A stretch of DNA of 64,000 bases from Roseburia hominis. Lineage in GTDB: Bacteria; Bacillota; Clostridia; Lachnospirales; Lachnospiraceae. Shown here in pieces: positions 5,837 through 17,421 of this stretch. The DNA lies in the NCBI GenBank assembly GCA_021771815.1, contig JAETOE010000015.1, positions 3,778-67,777 on the forward strand. Reading direction: 5' to 3'. The stretch's first letter is position 1. Each line of letters starts with the position of its first letter. The notes under the pieces were generated by a model that searched no databases, had not been told where the DNA came from, and worked only from the letters and a program-made list of their open reading frames with translations. Both the position numbers and the translations under genes were made by a program.

Positions 5837-6574
5837 CTACGCCTCCTTTCCTTTGTCAAGCAATACCTGGCAGGAACCGCCGCCCGTATTCTTAAGAATA
5901 TTCGGAAGAATCTTCTCCCTGCTGTCGTACATCGCTACCTGCCCGTCCTTTAAGTACACGATCTTATCCGCAATGTCCAAAATGCGCTCCTGATGGCTGA
6001 TGATGAGGATATTTCCGTCCGTCGCCTGCACCATCTTCTCGAATACATGAATCAGCTTCTGGAAGCTCCACAGATCAATTCCCGCCTCCGGCTCATCGAA
6101 GATACTGAGCTTCGCGCCGCGCGCAAGCGTCATAGCGATCTCGATGCGCTTCAGTTCACCGCCCGAGAGACTTCCGTCGAGATCCCGGTTGATATATTCC
6201 TTCGCGCAGAGCCCCACCTCGGAGAGCACGTCGCACAATTCGGAAACTTTTGCCTCCTTGCCCGCCGCAAGTGACATCAGATCCTTTACCGTAAGTCCCT
6301 TAAAGCGTACCGGCTGCTGAAAAGCGTAGCCGACGCCCTTATTGGCGCGCTCCGTGATACTAAGCCCGGTGATATCCTCCCCGTCGAGCAGGATCTTACC
6401 GCCCGTCGGCATCAGGATTCCCGCAATGATCTTGGCAAGCGTAGACTTTCCGCTGCCGTTCGGCCCCGTGATGACAACAAAGTGGTCATCTATTTTAAGA
6501 TTAATATCATACAGAAGCTCTTTCTCGTCTTCCGTCTGATAACTGATATGTTGTAATTCAATCACGTCTTCCAT
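5837..6574 (-). CDS. SufC-like ABC ATPase
   Basis: Walker A GPNGSGKST, signature LSGGELKR, Walker B LSIFDEPEAGID. Paired with the SufB/D-family gene. Confidence 0.8.
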   Translation of the reverse strand: MEDVIELQHISYQTEDEKELLYDINLKIDDHFVVITGPNGSGKSTLAKIIAGILMPTGGKILLDGEDITGLSITERANKGVGYAFQQPVRFKGLTVKDLMSLAAGKEAKVSELCDVLSEVGLCAKEYINRDLDGSLSGGELKRIEIAMTLARGAKLSIFDEPEAGIDLWSFQKLIHVFEKMVQATDGNILIISHQERILDIADKIVYLKDGQVAMYDSREKILPNILKNTGGGSCQVLLDKGKEA

Positions 6575-6755
6575 CTCCTTCTATCGACATTGGTACGCGC
6601 TCGCGTTTGCGTACCGCTTGTATTTTATCACATATATTGCCGATTCGGATAGTTCCTTTTGCCATGAATTACATATTTTATGAAAATTTTAGGAAAATTG
6701 CGCCCCTTCTCTACTTCACCGGCACAGTTTGAACCTGAGTTTTTTATCTGCGGTC

Positions 6756-6783
6756 TTGATTTTCGTTTCTGTAGTGCTATAAT
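6756..6783 (+). promoter_or_regulatory. sigma-A type promoter for tRNA-Val
   Basis: TTGATT (6756-6761), 16-nt spacer, TGCTATAAT extended -10 (TATAAT at 6778-6783). The tRNA starts 9 nt downstream. Confidence 0.6.
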
Positions 6784-6792
6784 TATTGTTAT

Positions 6793-6866
6793 GGAAGCAT
6801 AGCTCAGCCGGGATGAGCGTTCGCCTCACACGCGAGAGGTCACGGGTTCGAGCCCCGTTGCTTCCA
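6793..6866 (+). tRNA. tRNA-Val (anticodon CAC), no encoded CCA
   Basis: Hand-folded cloverleaf: acceptor GGAAGCA/TGCTTCC, D arm GCTC/GAGC, anticodon stem TTCGC/GCGAG with loop CTCACAC, T arm ACGGG-TTCGAGC-CCCGT, discriminator A. 74 nt. Confidence 0.9.
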
Positions 6867-7022
6867 TTTTTTTATTCTCAATTTGGCCCGGTTGTCTTTT
6901 TTTATCTTGCCTGATTGCGTTTACATTCTTTCGGTATATTTCTTATTTCGTTTCATCCAATTCATTCATAAAACGCATCTTATATTTTAAGAAATCTTCA
7001 AGATCCATTAATATATGAAATA

Positions 7023-7450
7023 CTAATGCTCTGCTTCAAATTCTTCGCGTGTTTTCGGCAGACTATCTTTCTGAATGCTTTTGAAAACTTCGTTTAATCG
7101 CTCCATCTGCTTTTTTGGGTAATTCCGTTCATTTATATAACCTGTCAAATACAGCATATACTCTGCTACCATCTTTGCCTGAACCGGCATTGTTCGAATC
7201 TTTTTCATTTCATAATGCAGATTATGCAAAATCTGACATTGGCTTTGCCGCATCTCAAAATATAGTATTCAGAATGCGAATGAAAGGTATTGCTTTGATA
7301 TTCGTATGCTTCCCTGATGCAATTCTGAATATCTTTTTCAAGAGCACAGAGATCATCCCAGACATTCCGCTCCATTTCTTTATTAGACAAATAGGCAGCA
7401 AGCGCGCCTATGATCAACTGCAGACGGTTTTCTACAGATTTCATATTCAT
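7023..7450 (-). pseudogene. hypothetical gene split into two overlapping frames (81-aa and 76-aa ORFs), probably frameshifted
   Basis: ORFs 7205-7450 and 7023-7253 overlap by 49 nt in different frames. AT-rich. No recognisable domain. Confidence 0.35.
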
Positions 7451-7493
7451 AACAATATGCTTTTTGTGGAAAAATATATATCATTTTTCAGAA

Positions 7494-7750
7494 ATGGCTA
7501 ACAAAACATTTCTCACATATGATGAGCAAATTAAAAAACTGGAAAAAGAAAAACAGCTTGTTATTTCTGATCCTAAATTTGCCAAAATAACATTGCAAAA
7601 ACTAAGCTATTTTTCATTAATTGACGGATATAAAGATTTATTTAAACATAAGCCATCAGGGAATTACCTACATGGTGTCACCTTTGAAGAAATTGCCGCC
7701 TTTTATTACTTTGATGAAGAATTGAGAACTCTCTTTCTTAAATACATATT
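7494..7750 (+). pseudogene. 5' fragment (about 85 codons) of an Abi_2 (AbiD/AbiF-like) abortive-infection gene
   Basis: MANKTFLTYDEQIKKLEKEKQLVISD..LSYFSLIDGYKDLF..FEEIAAFYYFDEELRTLFLKYIL matches the N-terminal pattern of Abi_2-family proteins, which are normally about 300 aa. Similarity ends near 7750, where antisense sequence of another truncated gene begins. Confidence 0.6.
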
Positions 7751-7852
7751 ACCCTTATCGAAGTCAATCACAAGTTCCTTGCCAGCCATATCCGTCATAG
7801 CAACCGCATTCCTGCTGCCATCATAATGATACACCATATAGTTTAATGTCAT
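7703..7852 (-). pseudogene. orphan 5' end of an unknown gene (MTLNYMVYHYDGSRNAVAMTDMAGKELVIDFDKG..) truncated at the junction with the Abi_2 fragment
   Basis: ATG 7852 follows GAGGTGAG, immediately after the displaced rlmD tail. Only about 34 codons precede the point where the frame runs into antisense Abi_2 sequence. Confidence 0.3.
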
Positions 7853-7864
7853 ATGCTCACCTCG

Positions 7865-8173
7865 CTACACCATCCCAAAATGCTCCAGCGCATCCTTTAT
7901 CGCTTTTTCCTTCTCCGCCGGACACTGAGGCTGTCTGCTATCTTCCGACTTCAGCAAATTATAATTCTCCCCGACCTTTATTCCACACTTCCTCTTTACC
8001 TGTGAAATATACAGATTAGACACCTTCACTCCATGCTCTTTCAAGGCATAATCCTTAATCTACGCATAAGTCGCCCTACTCTCCGCACTCATCGCATCGA
8101 GCTCGTCCAACTCCAATTCACCTTCAACATAGTCATCCGCTTTGCGTTGGGACAAGAGAACAACCATCTCCAC
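7865..8173 (-). pseudogene. displaced, diverged second copy of the rlmD 3' end plus tail, with an in-frame TAG
   Basis: Translation VEMVVLLSQRKADDYVEGELELDELDAMSAESRATYA*IKDYALKEHGVKVSNLYISQVKRKCGIKVGENYNLLKSEDSRQPQCPAEKEKAIKDALEHFGMV* parallels the last 115 aa of the intact rlmD ORF. The stop is at 8060-8062. Confidence 0.75.
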
Positions 8174-8209
8174 GGTATTACCTCTTTCCCACAAAATTGA
8201 AAAGGCTTT

Positions 8210-8986
8210 TTACCTTTTAATTCTTAAAAGTTCTGGTGCAGTCATAATGTCTAATTTTTCTTTACCAATAAATTTAAGAAACTCAAAAATAATTTCTTCA
8301 ATATTTTTCTGCAAATCATTTATTTGTTTCTCTAAATCTGAATTCTCTCTGATATATTTTGAATAAACCGTCTTGACAACTTCCGACAATTCAAAAGTAT
8401 GAATACATAGATACCTATCTATAAAATATGCATTTATATTTATTACCATGGGCGTCGTGTTCAATTGCATTTTACATTTATTCTCTGCAATCGTTTCAAG
8501 ATAGATATTCCAATTCGCCTGTTCTGGCGTACAATGACTATAGGCATTTAATGACGTTCTAATCATTTTTCTGTATTCAGAACTGTTCGCATTATCTGAA
8601 TTTGAGTCAAATGTCCATATTTTAGCTGCATCACTACTTTTTAGTTTACCTTTATTCCACTTTATCGCAGCATTTCCATTAATTCCCACAGCTGCAAAGC
8701 AATCTGTGGCATCCTCTATGGCACGCAAAAGAGTTATTGCCGATGAATGAAGCCCTCTACAATTTATCATCCCTACACTAGCCATCAATCCTAAAAGGTG
8801 TGTTAAAATTAGTGCACTCGCCGATTTTGATTCAATTGTATTCGCAACTGTTTCTGGCTTAGCTTCGGCGAAATGCCAAGCAAGCTTTAGCATTTTTTGT
8901 ACAGGGCTTTTCTCTCCAATAATATCTGAAAATGGTTTCTGTAATTGATTACTCATATATGCATTCTTCCCTATTTTATTCTTCAT
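8210..8986 (-). CDS. hypothetical all-helical 258-aa protein (possibly AbiV/DUF5677-like), last gene of the KilA-N cassette
   Basis: Intact ORF overlapping the KilA-N stop by 11 nt. Motifs LLRAIEDATDCFAAV ... W.KGK ... RTSLNAYSHCTPE recall DUF5677/AbiV-type proteins, from memory only. An alternative start is ATG 8956. Confidence 0.55.
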   Translation of the reverse strand: MKNKIGKNAYMSNQLQKPFSDIIGEKSPVQKMLKLAWHFAEAKPETVANTIESKSASALILTHLLGLMASVGMINCRGLHSSAITLLRAIEDATDCFAAVGINGNAAIKWNKGKLKSSDAAKIWTFDSNSDNANSSEYRKMIRTSLNAYSHCTPEQANWNIYLETIAENKCKMQLNTTPMVININAYFIDRYLCIHTFELSEVVKTVYSKYIRENSDLEKQINDLQKNIEEIIFEFLKFIGKEKLDIMTAPELLRIKR

Positions 8987-9830
8987 GCCGACTTATAGCA
9001 AATTTCGGCAAATTATTTAAACTTACTGTTTCCAATGTCTGTAACTGCTGCACTGCTAACTGACGAAGTAATTCCATTCGTTCTTTTTGACTTTTTCCCT
9101 GATTAATCAAAACTGCATTATAACTTTCTAGATTCGCAAGCACTAATAACTGATTCAGCGTTGCCACATCCCGCATATTTCCTTTTTCAGTTGGATTTTC
9201 ATCTTTCCACTGCTTTGCTGTTTGTCCGAACAAAACAACATTCAACATATCTGCTTCATTAGCATAGGTATACGCCACCTGTACGGGCGTTAATTCTGGC
9301 GGAATCAAATTTTCTTTAATTGCATCTGTATGTATCCTGTAATTCAACTTAGAAATTTCTCTATTCAAATTCCAAGTCAAAGATAACCGACTGTTTTCGT
9401 CTGTCTTTAAACGTCTGTAGTCTTTCATAATATATAGCTGAAACTCAGGAGAAATCCAGGTTGCAAAGGACATAGCAATATCACTATGAGCATATGTTCC
9501 GCCATAGCGTCCTGCTTTTGAAACAATACCGATAGCATCTGTCGCTTCTATCCATTTCTTGGGTGACATTGTAAAAGCATTCGCTCCAGCCTGCTTTTTA
9601 AACCCCTCGAATTCGAGGGGTTTAAAATTTGGATTATGTAACCTTTCCCACAGTCCCAAAAATTCTATAACATCCCGATTTCTCATCCAGTTTTGAATAA
9701 CCGCCGTCGGGTCATCGCTCTTATACCGGGCAATATCTGTCAATGAAATAAATTCATTTTCAAAATCCTGCGTATAAATTCCAATATCTATTCCATTTGC
9801 ATGGATTGTGTCTTTAATCATTTTCCCCAT
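8976..9830 (-). CDS. KilA-N domain-containing protein
   Basis: FISLTDIARYKSDDPTAVIQNWMRNRDVIEFLGLWERLHNPNF..GRYGGTYAHSDIAMSFATWISPEFQLY is the characteristic KilA-N/Bro-N-like DNA-binding module, followed by a helical C-terminal half. Start set at ATG 9830, which follows GGGAGG. The track ORF starts at GTG 9869. Confidence 0.85.
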   Translation of the reverse strand: MGKMIKDTIHANGIDIGIYTQDFENEFISLTDIARYKSDDPTAVIQNWMRNRDVIEFLGLWERLHNPNFKPLEFEGFKKQAGANAFTMSPKKWIEATDAIGIVSKAGRYGGTYAHSDIAMSFATWISPEFQLYIMKDYRRLKTDENSRLSLTWNLNREISKLNYRIHTDAIKENLIPPELTPVQVAYTYANEADMLNVVLFGQTAKQWKDENPTEKGNMRDVATLNQLLVLANLESYNAVLINQGKSQKERMELLRQLAVQQLQTLETVSLNNLPKFAISRHEE

Positions 9831-9882
9831 TGTTCCTCCCGCAATCACATTATAATCTTTTGGAAACACTTAATTCTCTTTT

Positions 9883-10176
9883 TTAAGAATCTTCTACTGA
9901 ATAACTACCCTCATCTTCCCACATTTCCCGATATGCTTCAATATAAAGCTTAATGCAGCCAGGGTATATATACAAATATCTTCTACACGCCCTTTTATAC
10001 AATTCCAATATTTTTTCATCACAAGCAAAATCCAATAAATAATCAAGCAAATGCGACAATTCATCTTCTGACACGGTTCTGCTACACACATCTTCAACCA
10101 ACGGCAAATAAATCTCATAGGCTTTCTGATGTATTTCAACTATCCATCCTGCAATCTGATAGATCCTTTCATCCAT
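9883..10176 (-). CDS. small acidic hypothetical protein (97 aa), first gene of the KilA-N cassette
   Basis: The ATG overlaps the rlmD stop (TAATG at 10174-10178). 21 Asp/Glu against 10 Lys/Arg. Predicted helical. No recognisable domain. Confidence 0.55.
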   Translation of the reverse strand: MDERIYQIAGWIVEIHQKAYEIYLPLVEDVCSRTVSEDELSHLLDYLLDFACDEKILELYKRACRRYLYIYPGCIKLYIEAYREMWEDEGSYSVEDS

Positions 10177-12143
10177 TAAATCACCTCAAAATATTCAAGA
10201 GCATCTGTTATCGCTTCTACCTTTTCTTTCGGTGGATGCTTCCTCGGATGTTTTAATTCTTCTGCCATATTAGGAGCATCATACATTGTTAGTCCCAAAG
10301 ACCTTTTCACCTCTGCAATATACGCAGTATGTACTTTAAACCCATATTTCTTCTCAACATATTCCTGTATCATTTTATATGTGATTTTCGGTTTCGGCTG
10401 ATATTTCTTCGCTCGCTCCGCTATTGTATCCAGCGGCACCTTGCCCTCACCCTCGCCAAATTCCACTTTTACATTAATAACACTGTCTGGTGATTTGTGG
10501 GACAAAAGTACAATAGTTTCCACATGCACCGTATGTCCAAACTGATCCACCGCTCTCACCCTCTTAATTTCATATCCCCCGTCGCAAAGCACCCGCAGAT
10601 CCCTCGCCAGTGTTGCCGAGTCGCAGCTCACATACACGATCCGTTCCGGCGCCATCTTAAGCATCGTCTCAAGACACTGTACATCACAGCCCTTCCTTGG
10701 CGGGTCTACGACAATGACGTCGGGATGGCGCATGTCCGCTCCGGCAACTTCCTCCGCTGCATCTCCGCTCAATGCGCCTGCTGCACCTTCCATCTTTCCG
10801 GCTGCATCTTTCTGCTGTCCTGTCTTACCCGCACGCTCATAGAACTCCGGCAGAACCTCCTCCGCCTTGCCGACGAAAAACTTCGCGTTCATAATGCCGT
10901 TTAGCTTGGCATTATTTCTCGCGTCCTCAATTGCCTGCGGAACAATCTCCACGCCGTAGACCATTCCTGCCTTCTGCGCCAGAAAGAGTGAAATCGTTCC
11001 GATGCCGCAGTAGAGATCCCAGACCGTCTCCTTTCCGGTCAGCCCCGCATAGTCGAGCGCAAGGCTGTAGAGCTTCTCCGTCTGCACCGGATTCACCTGA
11101 TAAAAAGACTGCGGGGAAATATGGTACGCAATCGCTGTGTCCGTAACGCGAAATTCTTCCACTGTTTCGGAAGAAATCTCCCGCGCGCCTTCCCTTCCAT
11201 ATACCTTCCCGCCGTCTGTTTCCTTTCGCACATCCCCATCCGTGCGCTCTTTCTCCCGCAGAGATGCATTCGCAGAAACATTTGTTCCACACTCCCGCAG
11301 ATGAATATAATCCGTAATATACGCCTGCCCCCAGATTGTTTCCGTTTCATTTCCAAGAATTACATTTGTATTTTTCGAATTAAGATTAACAGATATGCTT
11401 GTCATCCCATCTATCCGGCACAACTTTTCCACCAATTTCTCCTGTGCCGGAAGCTTCTTTCCGTTGATGACAAGACAGACCATGAATTCCTTCGTCGTAA
11501 AGCCATAGCGGATGAGAACATGGCGTATCAGCCCTTTTCCTGTCGTTTCATCGTAAGGCATCACATGATTTTCATTCATATAGGAGAGCACACAATCCAG
11601 TATTTCCTTATTTTCCGGTACGCCGAGCTTACAGTCCGACACGGGAATAATGCTGTGTGTGCGCGACGCGTAAAATCCTGCAATGATCTTTCCGTTCCTG
11701 TCCATGCCAATTGGAAACTGTGCCTTATTGCGGTAACGGTATGGGTGCTCCATCCCAACGATAGGCTCCATCACTCCATCCACAAATTCCGGTGCAAAGC
11801 CGCCGATCCGAATCAGATTGCCACGCACCTTATTCTGCTTAAAGCGAAGCTGCTCTCCATAATCCATCGCCTGAATCTGACAACCGCCGCAGCGTGCATG
11901 AAGCGCACATTCCGGCTCTGTACGCCGCGCGGAAGGCTCAATAATTTCCTCCACACGCGCGTAGCCGTAATTCTTCTTAAGCTTCGTCACACGCGCCCGG
12001 ATGACATCACCAATGACGGCGTCTTTCACAAAAAAGGTCATGCCCTCATATTTCCCGATTCCTTCCCCGTCAACGCCCATATCCTCAATTTTCAATTCTA
12101 TAATGCTGTTTTTCTCCAACATGGTTTCTCCCTGTACACTCAT
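10176..12143 (-). CDS. rlmD: 23S rRNA (uracil-C5)-methyltransferase RlmD/RumA with a 107-aa C-terminal tail and two low-complexity inserts
   Basis: TRAM domain (IELKIEDMGVDGEGIGKYEG), Fe-S Cys cluster (CALHARCGGCQ), SAM motif (DLYCGIGTISL), catalytic region VDPPRKGC..VYVSCD. The usual C-terminus ..HVETIVLLS is followed by an extra 107 aa encoded at 10176-10499. Confidence 0.9.
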   Translation of the reverse strand: MSVQGETMLEKNSIIELKIEDMGVDGEGIGKYEGMTFFVKDAVIGDVIRARVTKLKKNYGYARVEEIIEPSARRTEPECALHARCGGCQIQAMDYGEQLRFKQNKVRGNLIRIGGFAPEFVDGVMEPIVGMEHPYRYRNKAQFPIGMDRNGKIIAGFYASRTHSIIPVSDCKLGVPENKEILDCVLSYMNENHVMPYDETTGKGLIRHVLIRYGFTTKEFMVCLVINGKKLPAQEKLVEKLCRIDGMTSISVNLNSKNTNVILGNETETIWGQAYITDYIHLRECGTNVSANASLREKERTDGDVRKETDGGKVYGREGAREISSETVEEFRVTDTAIAYHISPQSFYQVNPVQTEKLYSLALDYAGLTGKETVWDLYCGIGTISLFLAQKAGMVYGVEIVPQAIEDARNNAKLNGIMNAKFFVGKAEEVLPEFYERAGKTGQQKDAAGKMEGAAGALSGDAAEEVAGADMRHPDVIVVDPPRKGCDVQCLETMLKMAPERIVYVSCDSATLARDLRVLCDGGYEIKRVRAVDQFGHTVHVETIVLLSHKSPDSVINVKVEFGEGEGKVPLDTIAERAKKYQPKPKITYKMIQEYVEKKYGFKVHTAYIAEVKRSLGLTMYDAPNMAEELKHPRKHPPKEKVEAITDALEYFEVI

Positions 12144-12191
12144 AAACCCGCTGTCATGAAAGTGTCTTTGCTTCCGATTCCATTCGTCAAA

Positions 12192-12224
12192 ATAAGCAGC
12201 CTCCGTTCTTCGTAAGCTGCTTAT
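12192..12224 (-). terminator. terminator after yhaM
   Basis: ATAAGCAGC / GCTGCTTAT 9-bp stem, followed on the minus strand by TTTT. Confidence 0.6.
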
Positions 12225-12242
12225 CTCCCGTCTCTGCCTGTA

Positions 12243-13193
12243 TTAGTCCCTGCCTGATCTGCGGATATTGCTCTCAAGCAGGCGATTATATCCCTGCCAC
12301 TCCAGATTATTTTCCGGTACATTCGCAAAAATTTCGCGAATCGTCTCCATCTTCGCATCTACATTGTCAGCGAAGCTAAGCGCAAGCGCTTCCGCCAATG
12401 CAGGCTTCTTCGGCGAACCGTACTCCAATTCCCCGTGATGCGCCAGAATGCAGTGCTTGAGCTCGTTCGCAAGCCCCTTTGGAAATCCCGGTATTGTGCG
12501 GATGCGTTCTCCGACCCATTCCGCCCCAATCATAATATGACCGAGCAGCTGTCCCGCGTCCGTATAATCATTCTCCGGGAACGTCGAAAGCTCTTCCATC
12601 TTTCCGATATCATGAAAAATCGCTGCCGATACCAGCAGGTCACGATTTAAAATCGGGTATGCCGCCGCGAAATAATCGCAGTGTTTCGCCACGGAAAGCG
12701 TATGCTCTAAAAGCCCGCCCACAAATCCATGGTGAACCGTCTTTGCCGCCGAATGAAATTTAAAGCGCTTTTCAAAATCCTTATCCTCTACGAAAAAGCT
12801 CTCAAGCAATTTCTTCAAGTACGGCTGTTTTATAGATGCAATCAGCGCGAGCAGTTCCCCGTACATTTCGTCAACGTCCCTGGTGCTGACCGGAAGATAA
12901 TCTTTCGGCTCATACTCACCTTCCTGTACCTTGCGGACGCGCTTAATATTAAGCTGCAGATTTCCCTGAAAACTCGTGATATCGCCCATGACATTGATGT
13001 AATCCAAGGAATCAAATTCCTCGATCCCCACCGATCCCGGCTCCCATATCTTAGCGTCCAGTGTTCCGGTCTTATCCTGCAGTACCAGACTGTCATACGG
13101 CTTTCCCGCCTTCGTCAATGCCGACTGCTTTACCTTGCACAAATAAATTTCGTTGATTCTCTCACCCTCGCGCAGACTCTCAATGTATTTCAT
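12243..13193 (-). CDS. yhaM: 3'-5' exoribonuclease YhaM (OB-fold plus HD domain)
   Basis: N-terminal OB region (YLCKVKQSALTKAGKPYDSLVLQDKTG) and HD motif (AAIFHDIGK). Start ATG 13193 follows GAGG. Confidence 0.8.
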   Translation of the reverse strand: MKYIESLREGERINEIYLCKVKQSALTKAGKPYDSLVLQDKTGTLDAKIWEPGSVGIEEFDSLDYINVMGDITSFQGNLQLNIKRVRKVQEGEYEPKDYLPVSTRDVDEMYGELLALIASIKQPYLKKLLESFFVEDKDFEKRFKFHSAAKTVHHGFVGGLLEHTLSVAKHCDYFAAAYPILNRDLLVSAAIFHDIGKMEELSTFPENDYTDAGQLLGHIMIGAEWVGERIRTIPGFPKGLANELKHCILAHHGELEYGSPKKPALAEALALSFADNVDAKMETIREIFANVPENNLEWQGYNRLLESNIRRSGRD

Positions 13194-13310: not shown

Positions 13311-14603
13311 CTATTTTAATACGCCGACCTCGACCGTACAGGTAATTTCCTCATACTTCTCTGTCCCCTGCCGCTCAATCACGATCTCGACCGAATCCCC
13401 CGGTTCCAGCGCAAGCAGCTTACTCTCATAGCTGTCGGCGGTATATACCGCCTCTCCGCCCATCTTTGTGATGACGTCTCCGCTCTGAAGCCCCGCTGCC
13501 ATCGCCGGAGAATCCATCTTGACCTCTTTGATATATGCACCCTTCGGAATCTCATTTTCCTTCGCGATATCCGTTGTGACCGTCGAAAGCTGCAGCCCGA
13601 TATACGGGACATCCATGCCATTCGACATCATCTGGATCATCTGTTTTAACTCGGAAATAGAGAGTGCTGTCAGCGTACTCTGATCCGCCTCATTTCCATA
13701 ATCCTGCATGACAAGACCGATGATCTCGCCGTTCGTATTGACAAGGACACCGCTTCCGTCGCTGCTTCCTACGATATCCGTCGTGAACACTGTATAATTA
13801 TTGTCAATCGTCGAGATGCTATTGTTGGTAGACGTGATATTTCCGGTCAGGATTGAATAATTCGTTCCGAGCGGACTTCCGACTGCAATCACGAGCGCCC
13901 CCTGCGTTGTCGCCAGGGAATTGCCAAGCTGCGCTACGGATATTGCATTCATAGTCTCCTCATCGACTGACGCGCGCGGCACAGAAAGCACCGTAATCCC
14001 CGTATTACCGTCATATTTTTTTATCTCTGCCTCTACCGTCACATCATTGATGAACGTAACATATACCTGCTGCACATCTGAAATCACCTTGTGCTCCGTC
14101 AGAATCAAAAGCTCCTGCCCGCTGTCCGCGATGATGATGCCCGACGCCTGCCCCTTGCTCTCATAAGCGTTGTTGAACCAGTCCGTGTCACTCTTTACGC
14201 CCGTAACCGTCACCACAAAACGGTTCGCTTCACGACCGACCGCATAAAGCTTATTCTGCACATTCTGTAAATCCGCGATCTCAAGTTCCGGCATCACCAC
14301 TTCCATCGGCGGCTGCTCTGTCTCCGGCGGCACAGCTTCCGTCTGCGGTTCCTCCGTCTCCTCCGTCTCTTCCGTCTCCGCAATGCTGTCCTGCGGAATC
14401 ATGACTGCCGGCGGCTCCTCAGGGTAGAACATCTCCGCAAACTTCGGCTGAAAATATGTAAAAACCAGACTCGCCACAAGCCCGAACACCACTGCCATTC
14501 CGACCGTGAAGCCTGCCTGCATCAGAAGCCTTCTCTTATTGACCGGCTTCTCCTTAATTTTCTCTTTGATAAAAGAAAACTGATCGTCATCTTTCTGCTG
14601 CAT
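13311..14603 (-). CDS. membrane-anchored trypsin-like (S1C/HtrA-family) protease with C-terminal PDZ domain
   Basis: N-terminal TM helix, TEHKV (His), GSSDGSGVLVN (Ser region), and a PDZ segment (GAYIKEVKMDSPAMAAGLQSGDVI). Start ATG 14603 follows AAGAGGAAA. Confidence 0.75.
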   Translation of the reverse strand: MQQKDDDQFSFIKEKIKEKPVNKRRLLMQAGFTVGMAVVFGLVASLVFTYFQPKFAEMFYPEEPPAVMIPQDSIAETEETEETEEPQTEAVPPETEQPPMEVVMPELEIADLQNVQNKLYAVGREANRFVVTVTGVKSDTDWFNNAYESKGQASGIIIADSGQELLILTEHKVISDVQQVYVTFINDVTVEAEIKKYDGNTGITVLSVPRASVDEETMNAISVAQLGNSLATTQGALVIAVGSPLGTNYSILTGNITSTNNSISTIDNNYTVFTTDIVGSSDGSGVLVNTNGEIIGLVMQDYGNEADQSTLTALSISELKQMIQMMSNGMDVPYIGLQLSTVTTDIAKENEIPKGAYIKEVKMDSPAMAAGLQSGDVITKMGGEAVYTADSYESKLLALEPGDSVEIVIERQGTEKYEEITCTVEVGVLK

Positions 14604-14754
14604 GATTTTCCTCTTTTCTAAGTGTTTCACACATGAACCTCTGAAAACCGTACCTCAGAATATTATAAAATGAATCACATACGCTTGCAATACTATTATT
14701 GAAATCTTTTGAAATCCGCTTTCCAAGCCGCCCCCAATACGTTATAATGTACAG

Positions 14755-14930
14755 GAAAGCGATGAGCAGTGCCAATCCGCGAAGAGACAAATATCCGTGC
14801 TTGCACGAAGATATTTGTTTCTTTGCGGATTGATAGGGCGAACGCCCGTGAATGAGGGAGCTTTGCTCCCGAATTCGCACTGCGGGCTATAGTTCTGCCG
14901 ATTCATAGGGCGAACGCCCACTGCTCATAA
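14755..14930 (+). ncRNA. candidate structured RNA or MITE-like element in the htrA-mutS2 divergent spacer
   Basis: 10-bp closing helix ATGAGCAGTG (14762-14771) / CACTGCTCAT (14919-14928). 23-bp helix 14773-14795 / 14810-14832 with 2 G-U pairs. Hairpins GGGCG-AA-CGCCC twice and GGGAGC-TTT-GCTCCC. TATAAT at 14743-14748. Class not recognised. Confidence 0.4.
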
Positions 14931-14958
14931 AACGACTAACAAATAAGGACATCCCATC

Positions 14959-17421
14959 ATGAATGAAAAAGTTTTACAAACGTTAGAATACAATAAAATC
15001 TTAGACCAGCTCACGGAGCACGCCTACAGCAGCGACGCAAAGCAGCGATGCAAGACGCTTCGCCCCATCACGGACCGCGCCGTCATCGAGCAGCAACAGC
15101 AGCAGACCGGCGACGCATTGAGCCGCATTTTCAAATATGGCTCACTCTCCTTCTCAGGAATCAGCGATATCCGTGACTCCTTAAAGCGTCTTGAAATCGG
15201 CGGCTCACTAAGCGCCATCGAGCTTCTGCGCATCTGCTCATTGTTAGAGGCTGCCAAACGCGCCAAAGCGTTTGCCCGCATGAGCCTAAGCCGCGCTGAC
15301 CGCATGAGCGAAGCTTCCGGCGATACCGCATCGTCTACATCACGCAACGGAGAGCAGACGCCGGAGTCCGGCGAACTGCAGGACTCGCTGACCGGCTTTT
15401 TCGCACAGATCGAGCCGCTCACGAAGCTTTCCGATGAGATCCGGCGCTGCATTCTTTCCGAGGATGAGATCGCGGATGATGCGAGCAGCACGCTCCGTTC
15501 CATCCGCCGCTCGCTGCGCGGCATGAACGATAAAATCCGCGCGCAGATGAATTCGATGATCAACAATTCCACGACCCGCAGTTATCTGCAGGACACGGTC
15601 ATTACAATGCGCGACGGGCGCTACTGTCTGCCCGTCAAAGCGGAAGCCAAGTCACAGGTACCCGGCATGATTCACGACCAGTCCTCCACAGGCTCCACAC
15701 TCTTCATCGAGCCGATGGCAGTTGTGAATTTGAACAACGAATACAAGGAGCTGCTGCTGCGCGAGCAGGACGAGATCGAAGTCATTCTCGCGAACTTAAG
15801 CAATCTGACCGGAGAATATGCCGTGCAGCTTCTGACGGACTATCAGGTCTTGACGGAACTTGATTTTATCTTTGCAAAAGCCTCTTATGCGCAGGAATAC
15901 AACAGCGTTGCTCCTCTTTTCAACGATGACGGGCATATCAATATCCGTAAAGCCCGCCATCCGCTGCTCGACCCGGCCAAAGTCGTTCCGATCGATATCC
16001 GTCTGGGAGAGGATTTCGGTCTTTTGATCGTGACCGGACCGAACACGGGAGGCAAGACCGTTTCCTTAAAGACTGTAGGACTTCTGACCCTTATGGGGCA
16101 GGCTGGTCTTCACATTCCCGCAGCCGAGCGCTCGCAGCTCGGTATTTTCGAGGAGGTATTTGCGGACATCGGCGACGAGCAGAGCATCGAGCAGTCCCTA
16201 AGTACCTTTTCCTCCCATATGAAAAATATCATCCGCATCTTAGACCAGGCGGATGACCGGTCGCTTGTCCTCTTCGACGAGCTTTGCGCCGGAACCGATC
16301 CTACCGAGGGCGCTGCGCTTGCGATTTCCATTCTCGCAAAGCTGCACCTCTACGGCGCGCGGATCATGGCAACCACACACTACAGCGAGTTGAAGGTCTA
16401 TGCACTCTCCACTCCGGGCGTTGAGAACGCCTGCTGTGAATTTGACGTCTCGACATTAAGCCCGACTTACCGCCTCCTGATCGGCATTCCCGGCAAGAGT
16501 AATGCATTCGCAATTTCCGAAAAACTCGGGCTGTCCACTGATTTGATCGAAGATGCAAAAGGACGCATCAGCGAGAGCGAGAGCGGCTTTGAAGATCTGA
16601 TTGCCGATCTCGAGAAGAGCCGCATCACGATCGAGAAGGAACAGCTTGAGATCAACCAGTACAAGGCAGAGATCGAAACGCTGAGAGAAAAACTCACACA
16701 GAAACAGGAGCGGCTTGAAAACAGCCGTGACAAAATTCTGCGTGAAGCCAACGAACAGGCATACAATATCATCAAAGAGGCAAAGGATCTCGCCGACGAA
16801 ACGATCCGCAATTTCAACAAATACGGAACTGCCGGAGCGCCTGTCTCCCAGATGGAAAAGGAGCGCACAAAGCTCCGCGGCAAAATGGATGACGCGGCAA
16901 AAAAGATGTCCAATTCTAAGAAACCTGCGGCTCCGAACCATAAAGTTCCAAAGAACCTGCGCATCGGCGACAGCGTAAAAGTCATCAGCATGAACTTAAA
17001 CGGCACGGTTCACTCTCTGCCGAACGCCAAGGGCGACCTCTATGTACAGATGGGGATTCTGCGTTCCCTCGTCAACATAAACGACCTGATCCTTCTCGAG
17101 GAGGAGACTTCCTCCTCCGGCAAAAAGTTCAATAAGACCGGAGCCGGAAAGATCAAGATGAGCAAATCCGCATCGGTTTCCACGGAAATCAATCTGATCG
17201 GCAAAACGACCGACGAGGCGATTCCTCTGTTGGATAAATACCTCGACGACGCATATCTGGCGCACCTGCCCTCTGTGCGCATCGTCCACGGGAAAGGCAC
17301 GGGCGCGTTAAGAAACGCAGTACAGGCGCACTTAAAACGGCTGAAATATATCAAGTCCTTCCATCTCGGCGAATTTGGCGAGGGTGATGCAGGCGTTACG
17401 ATTGCAGAATTTAAGGATTAA
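14959..17421 (+). CDS. mutS2: endonuclease MutS2
   Basis: 820 aa. Walker A GPNTGGKT, MutS domain V, C-terminal Smr domain (VRIVHGKGTGALR). Confidence 0.92.
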   Translation: MNEKVLQTLEYNKILDQLTEHAYSSDAKQRCKTLRPITDRAVIEQQQQQTGDALSRIFKYGSLSFSGISDIRDSLKRLEIGGSLSAIELLRICSLLEAAKRAKAFARMSLSRADRMSEASGDTASSTSRNGEQTPESGELQDSLTGFFAQIEPLTKLSDEIRRCILSEDEIADDASSTLRSIRRSLRGMNDKIRAQMNSMINNSTTRSYLQDTVITMRDGRYCLPVKAEAKSQVPGMIHDQSSTGSTLFIEPMAVVNLNNEYKELLLREQDEIEVILANLSNLTGEYAVQLLTDYQVLTELDFIFAKASYAQEYNSVAPLFNDDGHINIRKARHPLLDPAKVVPIDIRLGEDFGLLIVTGPNTGGKTVSLKTVGLLTLMGQAGLHIPAAERSQLGIFEEVFADIGDEQSIEQSLSTFSSHMKNIIRILDQADDRSLVLFDELCAGTDPTEGAALAISILAKLHLYGARIMATTHYSELKVYALSTPGVENACCEFDVSTLSPTYRLLIGIPGKSNAFAISEKLGLSTDLIEDAKGRISESESGFEDLIADLEKSRITIEKEQLEINQYKAEIETLREKLTQKQERLENSRDKILREANEQAYNIIKEAKDLADETIRNFNKYGTAGAPVSQMEKERTKLRGKMDDAAKKMSNSKKPAAPNHKVPKNLRIGDSVKVISMNLNGTVHSLPNAKGDLYVQMGILRSLVNINDLILLEEETSSSGKKFNKTGAGKIKMSKSASVSTEINLIGKTTDEAIPLLDKYLDDAYLAHLPSVRIVHGKGTGALRNAVQAHLKRLKYIKSFHLGEFGEGDAGVTIAEFKD

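Follow-up and report, generated by a model that had tools for sequence, protein, structure and literature searches.

In this study, we analysed a 64,000-nt stretch of Roseburia hominis DNA (contig JAETOE010000015.1; hereafter the window, with all coordinates given as positions within it), in which three small genes, encoding an acidic 97-aa protein (p97), a KilA-N protein, and a 248-aa protein (p248), directly follow the 23S rRNA methyltransferase gene rlmD. This region is probably the newest unit of a defence island that is anchored at rlmD and carries no integrase. It is a defence-island cassette rather than an obligate trio; cassettes of this kind are widespread in gut Firmicutes, and p97, KilA-N, and the C-terminal tail of RlmD form their conserved arm. 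Within this arm p97 constantly accompanies both the tail and KilA-N. p248 is a rare protein whose position is taken by anti-phage genes in related cassettes.

The rlmD open reading frame (ORF) is a chimera whose last ~110 codons belong to the inserted AT-rich unit. Its composition breaks at the VETIVLLS codons, the final ~110 codons (10497 down) being AT-rich, and GC is 0.359 in the unit versus 0.509 in the rlmD core. The unit spans 8174-10523 (2,350 bp). A core copy is followed in it by the new tail of RlmD, p97, KilA-N, p248, and a right-end motif, all on the minus strand. The left core copy GTGGAAACTATTGTACTTTTGTCCCA (10498-10523, 26 nt) encodes VETIVLLS, the last conserved RlmD strand, and forms the junction with the host rlmD core (10524-12143; TRAM and U5-methyltransferase domains, GC 0.51). 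The unit-encoded tail (10176-10497) then continues in-frame as ~107 aa of RlmD and a stop codon. At the other end, the right-end motif ATTTTGTGGGAAAGAGGTAATACC (8174-8197), loosely like the rlmD sequence immediately upstream of the core, adjoins a right core copy GTGGAGATGGTTGTTCTCTTGTCCCA (8148-8173, minus strand), which is 20/26 identical to the left copy and begins the displaced older rlmD 3' end. Thus, a second and more GC-rich rlmD 3' end lies beyond p248, reading VEMVVLLS and then a homologous ~100-aa tail of type 2 (7865-8147, minus strand, GC 0.46). This older tail is inactivated by a single in-frame TAG at 8060-8062; since the TAG sits where relatives read Gln and the tail is in frame with the core copy, pseudogenisation is recent and followed displacement. 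Altogether, the rlmD-derived core is present at 91 sites in the window and related loci.

Three intact minus-strand ORFs of 97 aa (9883-10176), 297 aa (8976-9869), and 258 aa (8210-8986) follow each other head to tail within an AT-rich patch (6500-10500; GC 0.34-0.39, flanks ~0.5) that contains no integrase anywhere, in agreement with a preliminary description of the region. Likewise confirmed was the TAATG at 10174-10178, where the stop codon of the 655-aa rlmD ORF shares its A with the ATG of p97. The starts of the other two genes had to be revised. KilA-N, placed 12 nt after p97 in that description, likely starts at ATG 9830 behind a GGAGG, as in homologues, which leaves a gap of 52 nt and gives a protein of 284 aa (8976-9830) instead of the 297 aa of the mechanical ORF from GTG 9869. 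The last gene encodes 248 aa rather than 258 aa (8210-8956), because most homologues start at the equivalent of M11; this ATG (8956) lies 19 nt past the KilA-N stop, and the 11-nt overlap noted earlier disappears. The hairpin and T-run thought to close the unit proved to be an AU-rich stem of ordinary folding energy (z = -1.16; 27 of 200 shuffles fold equally well), and as it was also missed by a terminator scan and its energy is ordinary for its composition, a terminator at the unit end was rejected. That these genes remain intact amid decayed DNA had been read as selection for the cassette. Intactness was indeed accompanied by purifying selection on all four coding segments (tail, p97, KilA-N, and p248; ratio of nonsynonymous to synonymous substitution rates, dN/dS, 0.05-0.34), but the contrast with the surroundings has a simpler explanation, namely that this is the youngest unit and adjoins the insertion point.

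For a census of related cassettes, 88 p97 loci were fetched and the window proteins were mapped on each (fetched loci carry L numbers; L031 is the window's own source). With proteins clustered at 90% identity, the p97 search gave at least 672 clusters and the tail search at least 2,465, the tail matches being mostly called as stand-alone ORFs of 109-126 aa. The arm varies little across the census (tail 73-100% identical, median 88%; p97 77-100%; KilA-N 66-100%), tail and p97 meet in a TAATG-type junction at the same coordinates in most loci, and KilA-N starts at most 150 nt from p97 in 67 of the 69 loci that extend far enough. A direct fusion of the full tail to an rlmD core was seen in 22 loci, and 21 of these cores (L031 excluded) are 28-57% identical to that of the window. 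A near-constant block thus sits on divergent rlmD cores, which means that it spreads horizontally and always inserts at the same exact codon.

The gene after KilA-N is hypervariable, with ~30 architectures, and p248 occupies this slot in just 2 of the 88 loci, with remnants in a few more. Nameable families in the slot include GmrSD, SMEK_N with a STAND NTPase, TIR-like/Nuc_deoxyrib_tr, DUF4365, a PbeA-like helicase, DUF4062, a weak HEPN_RiboL-PSP match, and a DUF5677 protein; a type I restriction-modification system and AbiJ were found beyond the next tail. Judged by family assignment, the nameable slot genes are of predicted defence type, and the link between these surroundings and defence drawn in the preliminary description is borne out by the related units. 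No integrase was found in the complete units bounded by a next tail, that is, those of the window (2.35 kb), L024 (GmrSD, 3.7 kb), L047/53/73 (STAND, 6.5 kb), L043, and L088. Units with differing payloads (SMEK/STAND, GmrSD, and a 1241-aa protein) have the right-end motif in common. A second unit family, in which tail variant 1b is accompanied by DUF6414/YhcG, CxxCxxCC, AAA_15, and others, occupies the same core without p97 or KilA-N; therefore, p97 and KilA-N are not required for insertion in every unit.

How units come and go is indicated by two further cases. L023 and L026 are 98% identical at the nucleotide level and differ by exactly one 2,446-bp unit at the core (L023:5207-7652 versus L026:7653). 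This unit, composed of a tail variant, DUF6414, and DUF1016/YhcG, is flanked by an identical 17-nt repeat GTGGAGACGGTAGTACT, and the two loci are a natural filled-versus-empty pair. In Dorea sp. 5-2, a cultured strain (L013, KE159716, 8415-14040), three tail-p97-KilA-N units are arrayed in tandem. Only the first of them has stayed intact; in the second, KilA-N is truncated and insertion sequence fragments are present, and of the third just pieces of tail and p97 are left. From this polar decay, units seem to be added beside rlmD while older ones decay distally, which explains why the window unit is intact beside wrecked DNA. A RhuM gene and a Tn916-type rep/xis/int module precede the Dorea array. 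The Tn916-type xis/int was considered and rejected, as the RhuM gene separates xis/int from the core; the module is probably a different insertion.

Strong purifying selection (dN/dS 0.06-0.13) shows the tail to be a real protein segment. In other genomes (L047-type loci), a short native rlmD is followed by a small gene of its own that is homologous to the last ~70 aa of the tail. This ~70-aa domain (window 10179-10390), with which every tail ends, has the invariant residues I46, G55, K57, V58, Y62, I63, V66, K67, G71, N79, K95, A98, I99, and A102. Weak hints, namely matches to HTH_33 in 4 of 13 members (best E 0.034) and to the helix-turn-helix region of IS630 transposase (E 0.008), point to a putative winged helix-turn-helix of transposase type; a PDB sequence-profile search with the tail gave chance-level matches only. 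In seven loci (L034, L035, L059, L072, L076, L092, and L098), the core and tail are preceded by another reading frame that is not rlmD, running either ...FPVYYNG...ENT-VETIVLLS or ...IKFKLPIIEEDM...LDNDxH-VETIVLLS, and the tail may be fused to, or displaced behind, genes other than rlmD in some loci.

The identity of the KilA-N protein was upheld, since residues 34-154 match PF04383 with 67.9 bits, well over the cut-off of 23.8. It also matches the PADLOC PDC-S22 model PDLC04962 end to end (E 2.6e-133, 441 bits; residues 19-283 on positions 3-268 of the 281-position profile) as well as phrog_2657, a 'transcriptional regulator'. The KilA-N gene can hence not be called undescribed, as it is already the PADLOC candidate PDC-S22. 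On the function of PDC-S22, the literature searched contained nothing specific; the only paper in it that names PDC-S22 is a genome survey. Homologues 52-57% identical to the KilA-N protein occur in Staphylococcus phage EW (L112:4013-5942) and in several Streptococcus satellite phages (Javan588, L111:1-2354), where their genes immediately precede the integrase gene in the same orientation and come after repressor/metalloprotease genes, i.e. in the lysogeny module. Plasmid matches, from several phyla, cover the KilA-N domain only. The KilA-N ORF contains a perfect 32-nt palindrome TTTTAAACCCCTCGAATTCGAGGGGTTTAAAA (9596-9627) with an EcoRI site at its centre. The central 24 nt are exact and in the same position in 41 fetched loci, and are missing from a KilA-N variant of ~83% identity (L001, L023-L026). 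This palindrome could be a putative binding or recombination site, or an antisense terminator.

p97 is acidic, as described previously (21 D/E, 10 K/R, pI 4.4), has four Cys, and is modelled as a four-helix bundle (pLDDT 88). A Foldseek search of this model against PDB gave no match with E <0.1 and none that was informative, and p97 has no usable match in Pfam, PADLOC, PHROGs, or NCBIfam. The proposal that p97 is an inhibitor or antitoxin thus found no support in a four-helix bundle devoid of an informative structural neighbour. p97 and KilA-N would rather form a separate conserved pair, a DNA-binding candidate module for defence or regulation.

p248 is rare: clustering at 90% identity gave 61 clusters, a set of 1.84 billion proteins contained 94 representatives, and 10 of 185,579 species genomes have it. 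Neither p248 nor its longer relatives have a match in Pfam, PADLOC, PHROG, or NCBIfam. Its model is confident (pLDDT 88.9, pTM 0.88) and all-alpha except for one beta hairpin; Foldseek against PDB and BFVD gave nothing with E <0.1, and a PDB sequence-profile search gave chance-level matches only. Among ~45 invariant positions, many of them His, Asp, Glu, Arg, and Cys, are H53, H70, R78, E81, D82, D85, R129, R133, N137, H141, D180, H186, C86, C142, and C184, which from conservation look like a catalytic or metal site. In 15 distinct loci, p248 homologues lie beside KilA-N in 7, beside p97 in 4 (all one close cassette), and overlapping an Rv1289-like gene in 4; tyrosine-recombinase genes are near in 4 loci and serine-recombinase fragments in 3, and single homologues lie beside a Shedu-like SduA_C gene and inside a T7-like phage. 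The p248 family is restricted to mobile contexts.

Several of these distant loci have features of their own. On the T7-like phage contig (L011:6001-8094), the genes for tail tube and capsid are separated by two genes of opposite strand, a p248 homologue (47% identical) and a partner of 435 aa, which look like a phage-borne accessory gene pair. The overlapping gene of 150-160 aa that follows the p248 homologue in Desulfofarcimen, Paenibacillus, Pelotomaculum, and one metagenome-assembled genome (L005:6768-7232, L008:6768-7220, L009:6753-7241, and L018:10768-11223) is Pfam Rv1289 (PF27329) by precomputed annotation in L005, L008, and L009, and by sequence clustering in L018. p248 and the Rv1289-like protein may be a two-gene form of the system that is absent from the window. 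In L017, where the p248 homologue lies 3 kb downstream of a tail-less rlmD, three adjacent same-strand ORFs (343, 331, and 281 aa; 13415-16262) are found ~2.7 kb from it; two of the three cluster with tyrosine-integrase ORFs of other loci, and they may be a recombinase trio.

The preliminary description had considered the three genes to be one defence or addiction module, and in its strictest form, an obligate system of p248 as toxin, acidic p97 as inhibitor, and KilA-N as DNA-binding regulator, we consider this very improbable. The three genes do share one strand, tight packing, short gaps, and translational coupling to rlmD, each is under purifying selection, and the trio is intact again in L001, L013, L014, L031, and L033. 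However, these recurrences all represent a single cassette of close relatives, in which p248 identity is 83% or higher, and the genes are not inherited together: in 67 of 69 loci the rlmD tail is followed by p97 and KilA-N, behind which other genes replace p248, while p248 homologues lack p97 in 11 of 15 loci and KilA-N in 8 of 15. The family sizes are also unequal, with at least 672 clusters for p97 versus 61 for p248. The neighbourhood survey of p248, which had been proposed as a check on trio co-occurrence, thus came out against it. A second suggestion of that description was that p248 recalls abortive-infection proteins of the DUF5677/AbiV type; p248 would then be a divergent HEPN RNase aborting infection by RNA cleavage. 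The motifs LLRAIEDATDCF, WNKGK, and LNAYSH to which it had pointed are present, AbiV (9bj6_A) ranks second in the Foldseek search of PDB with the highest probability (0.69) of the top-ranked matches, and a genuine DUF5677 protein occupies the same post-KilA-N slot of L042 (3954-5411; PF18928 E 1.9e-15). Yet the structural match stays under fold-level significance (E = 0.29, TM 0.34/0.40) and is a sub-threshold echo only. PF18928 is touched by 1 of 35 p248 family members (E = 0.027), but none of the 35 reaches the Pfam cut-off or matches the PADLOC AbiV models, p248 of the window itself has no PF18928 match, and hhalign of the p248 family profile against the L042 DUF5677 protein gave a probability of 0.2%, albeit in a weak test with a single-sequence template. 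An invariant Rx4-6H motif is absent from p248, the nearest being R133-x7-H141, although AbiV family members are often without the canonical motif (10.1101/2024.05.05.592566), which counts for the AbiV reading. AbiV was therefore rejected at the sequence level (Pfam, PADLOC, hhalign, and motif), and we regard such an RNase as quite unlikely.

Two other explanations concern the arm and the unit as a whole. The tail domain, p97, and KilA-N might be the mobility or regulatory apparatus of the cassette, marking att (attachment) sites, recruiting a trans-acting or host recombinase, or serving as directionality factors, in which case its constant place beside defence payloads would be the only reason for PDC-S22 to be listed in PADLOC. 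These three are always att-proximal and are the sole conserved genes of the integrase-less units, the KilA-N homologues of phage EW and the Streptococcus satellites adjoin integrase, the tail domain weakly resembles a transposase-type winged helix-turn-helix, and the palindrome centre within the KilA-N gene is kept exactly in many loci. Nevertheless, a mobility role appears unlikely, considering that the second unit family inserts at the same core without p97 or KilA-N and that the tail, p97, and KilA-N have no catalytic recombinase motif or family match. The integrase-adjacent position in prophages is, moreover, also the classic slot for exclusion genes expressed in lysogeny. Alternatively, a conjugative element or prophage may once have integrated in rlmD and decayed, leaving the unit as an inert, cis-mobilisable remnant whose genes have no current role. 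Its att-like flanking repeats, its lack of integrase and transfer genes, and the decayed genes adjoining it fit this explanation, and so does the fact that integrative elements of streptococci are known to target rumA/rlmD and that decayed tandem elements are well described (PMC5704250). In contrast, all four coding segments are under purifying selection, the ORFs are intact across many genomes, and at least five different complete integrase-less units keep the same left arm and right-end motif, for which independent deletions are unlikely. An inert remnant is thus hardly to be expected.

For the reading we prefer, that of the newest unit of a defence island at rlmD, the following mechanism can be proposed. 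A unit would arrive by site-specific recombination, with the recombinase acting in trans. The right-end motif resembles rlmD just 5' of the core, so the joined ends of a unit would mimic the target, as attP mimics attB. Within a species, units would be gained, lost, and swapped via recombination between the repeated tails. The genes would be read from the rlmD transcript, and the unit nearest rlmD would therefore be expressed best; a promoter scan found promoter-like sites no commoner than in shuffles, and no terminator stands out. Translation of p97 would be coupled to that of the RlmD tail, and KilA-N and p248 have predicted Shine-Dalgarno sites. p248 would be the payload of the unit and not a partner of p97 and KilA-N, most likely a stand-alone or loosely partnered predicted anti-phage effector of the abortive-infection type.

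A number of observations weigh against this reading. No recombinase acting on the core was identified, and homologous recombination between tails could equally account for the difference between L023 and L026. Neither an empty site nor an alternative payload was found in the species of the window itself, where one of the two flanking proteins searched was not on record and the other gave the same arrangement only. Co-transcription with rlmD is deduced solely from signals missing in a crude scan. PDC-S22 is a computational candidate only, and a defence function is a prediction for all three genes. Collections of 50,697 phage and 72,556 plasmid records contained no match to p248, and family and structure searches recognised no catalytic family for it, just as the preliminary description had been able to name none. 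Finally, since the neighbours of p248 in distant loci are mostly without a Pfam match, the call of p248 as a defence gene rests on the slot that it occupies.

A more far-reaching reading is possible, although we hold it to be doubtful. Gut Firmicutes may have a widespread, integron-like capture of defence genes at rlmD with no known integrase, in which each unit brings a selected replacement for the C-terminal domain of RlmD, possibly a nucleic-acid binder of winged helix-turn-helix type, and is inserted at the VETIVLLS codons by an unrecognised mechanism relying on a trans-acting recombinase or involving the tail, p97, or KilA-N. The proximal unit would ride on the rlmD transcript, and p248 would be a new anti-phage effector with a fold not in PDB. 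If this is true, the rlmD 3' end would be a fixed address, in many gut Firmicutes, at which defence genes can be harvested systematically, and the unmatched slot genes, among them those for p248, the 1241-aa protein, and proteins of 234, 527, and 616 aa, would be candidate new anti-phage systems. No description of a defence hotspot at rlmD/rumA or of p248 was found in the literature searched, which is not proof of novelty.

The older, decayed distal section of the AT-rich patch contains remains of a different kind. The truncated Abi_2/AbiD gene mentioned in the preliminary description is indeed present as an N-terminal fragment (7410-7826, plus strand), 384 nt from the last gene. Besides this fragment, two frameshifted ArAE_1_C pieces, corresponding to a single 146-aa ORF in L113, lie between the tRNA-Val gene and the old tail (6900-7860). 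The tRNA-Val gene (6792-6867, plus strand) marks the edge of the patch and was the only match in a search of 6000-12500 for structured RNA (Rfam). The Abi_2/AbiD and ArAE_1_C remains may belong to another element that used tRNA-Val as its site.

Among known systems, the closest comparison is with cis-mobilisable elements (CIMEs) and the tandem accretion of ICESt1/ICESt3-type islands (PMC5704250). Both involve integrase-less units with att-like direct repeats (20/26 between the core copies here), insertion at the 3' end of a conserved gene with a replacement 3' end, and tandem stacks in which older units are displaced and decay; the window unit, with only the tail, p97, KilA-N, and p248, likewise has no integration or transfer genes. 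As regards an origin by deletion from an integrative element with the same ends, the 88 loci yielded no parent that combines this arm with an integrase. One left arm and one right-end motif are shared by many payloads, as would be expected of a family of small cargo units more than of random deletion remnants. Furthermore, the replacement here is a conserved ~110-aa extension under purifying selection and not a few codons. The integrative mobilisable elements in streptococcal rumA (PMC5704250) use the same target family, the 23S rRNA U1939 methyltransferase. Unlike the rlmD units, however, they have their own serine integrase and disrupt the gene at an internal site, whereas here the gene is kept and extended at its last conserved strand by a unit without integrase.

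Arrays of defence cassettes in sedentary chromosomal integrons (10.1101/2024.07.02.601686) offer an analogy: like these, the rlmD arrays would be made of small, promoter-poor, integrase-less cassettes with defence cargo, with additions at one fixed site by a resident promoter and decay of distal cassettes. The rlmD arrays differ in that the patch and the units have no IntI, no attC-type sites were found in them, the boundaries are rlmD-derived core copies, the palindrome at 9596-9627 is intragenic, insertion occurs inside a coding sequence, and every unit has a protein-coding tail. At the level of single proteins, p248 resembles Lactococcus AbiV (HEPN RNase, DUF5677) in its all-helical build of ~200-250 aa, its defence context, and a weak structural resemblance, but fails the sequence, profile, and motif tests for that family. 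The accessory genes of temperate phages and satellites that lie in the repressor-integrase slot of lysogeny modules include the KilA-N homologues noted above, whereas the KilA-N gene studied here has no repressor or integrase beside it and would depend on the transcript of a housekeeping gene. Lastly, PDC-S22 is listed as a single gene, but here it almost always has p97 and the RlmD tail before it and a variable defence gene after it. The PDC-S22 KilA-N gene may thus be a backbone gene of the island rather than an effector and, if the island reading is true, PDC-S22 would have to be seen anew, as marking a mobile island or belonging to its backbone.

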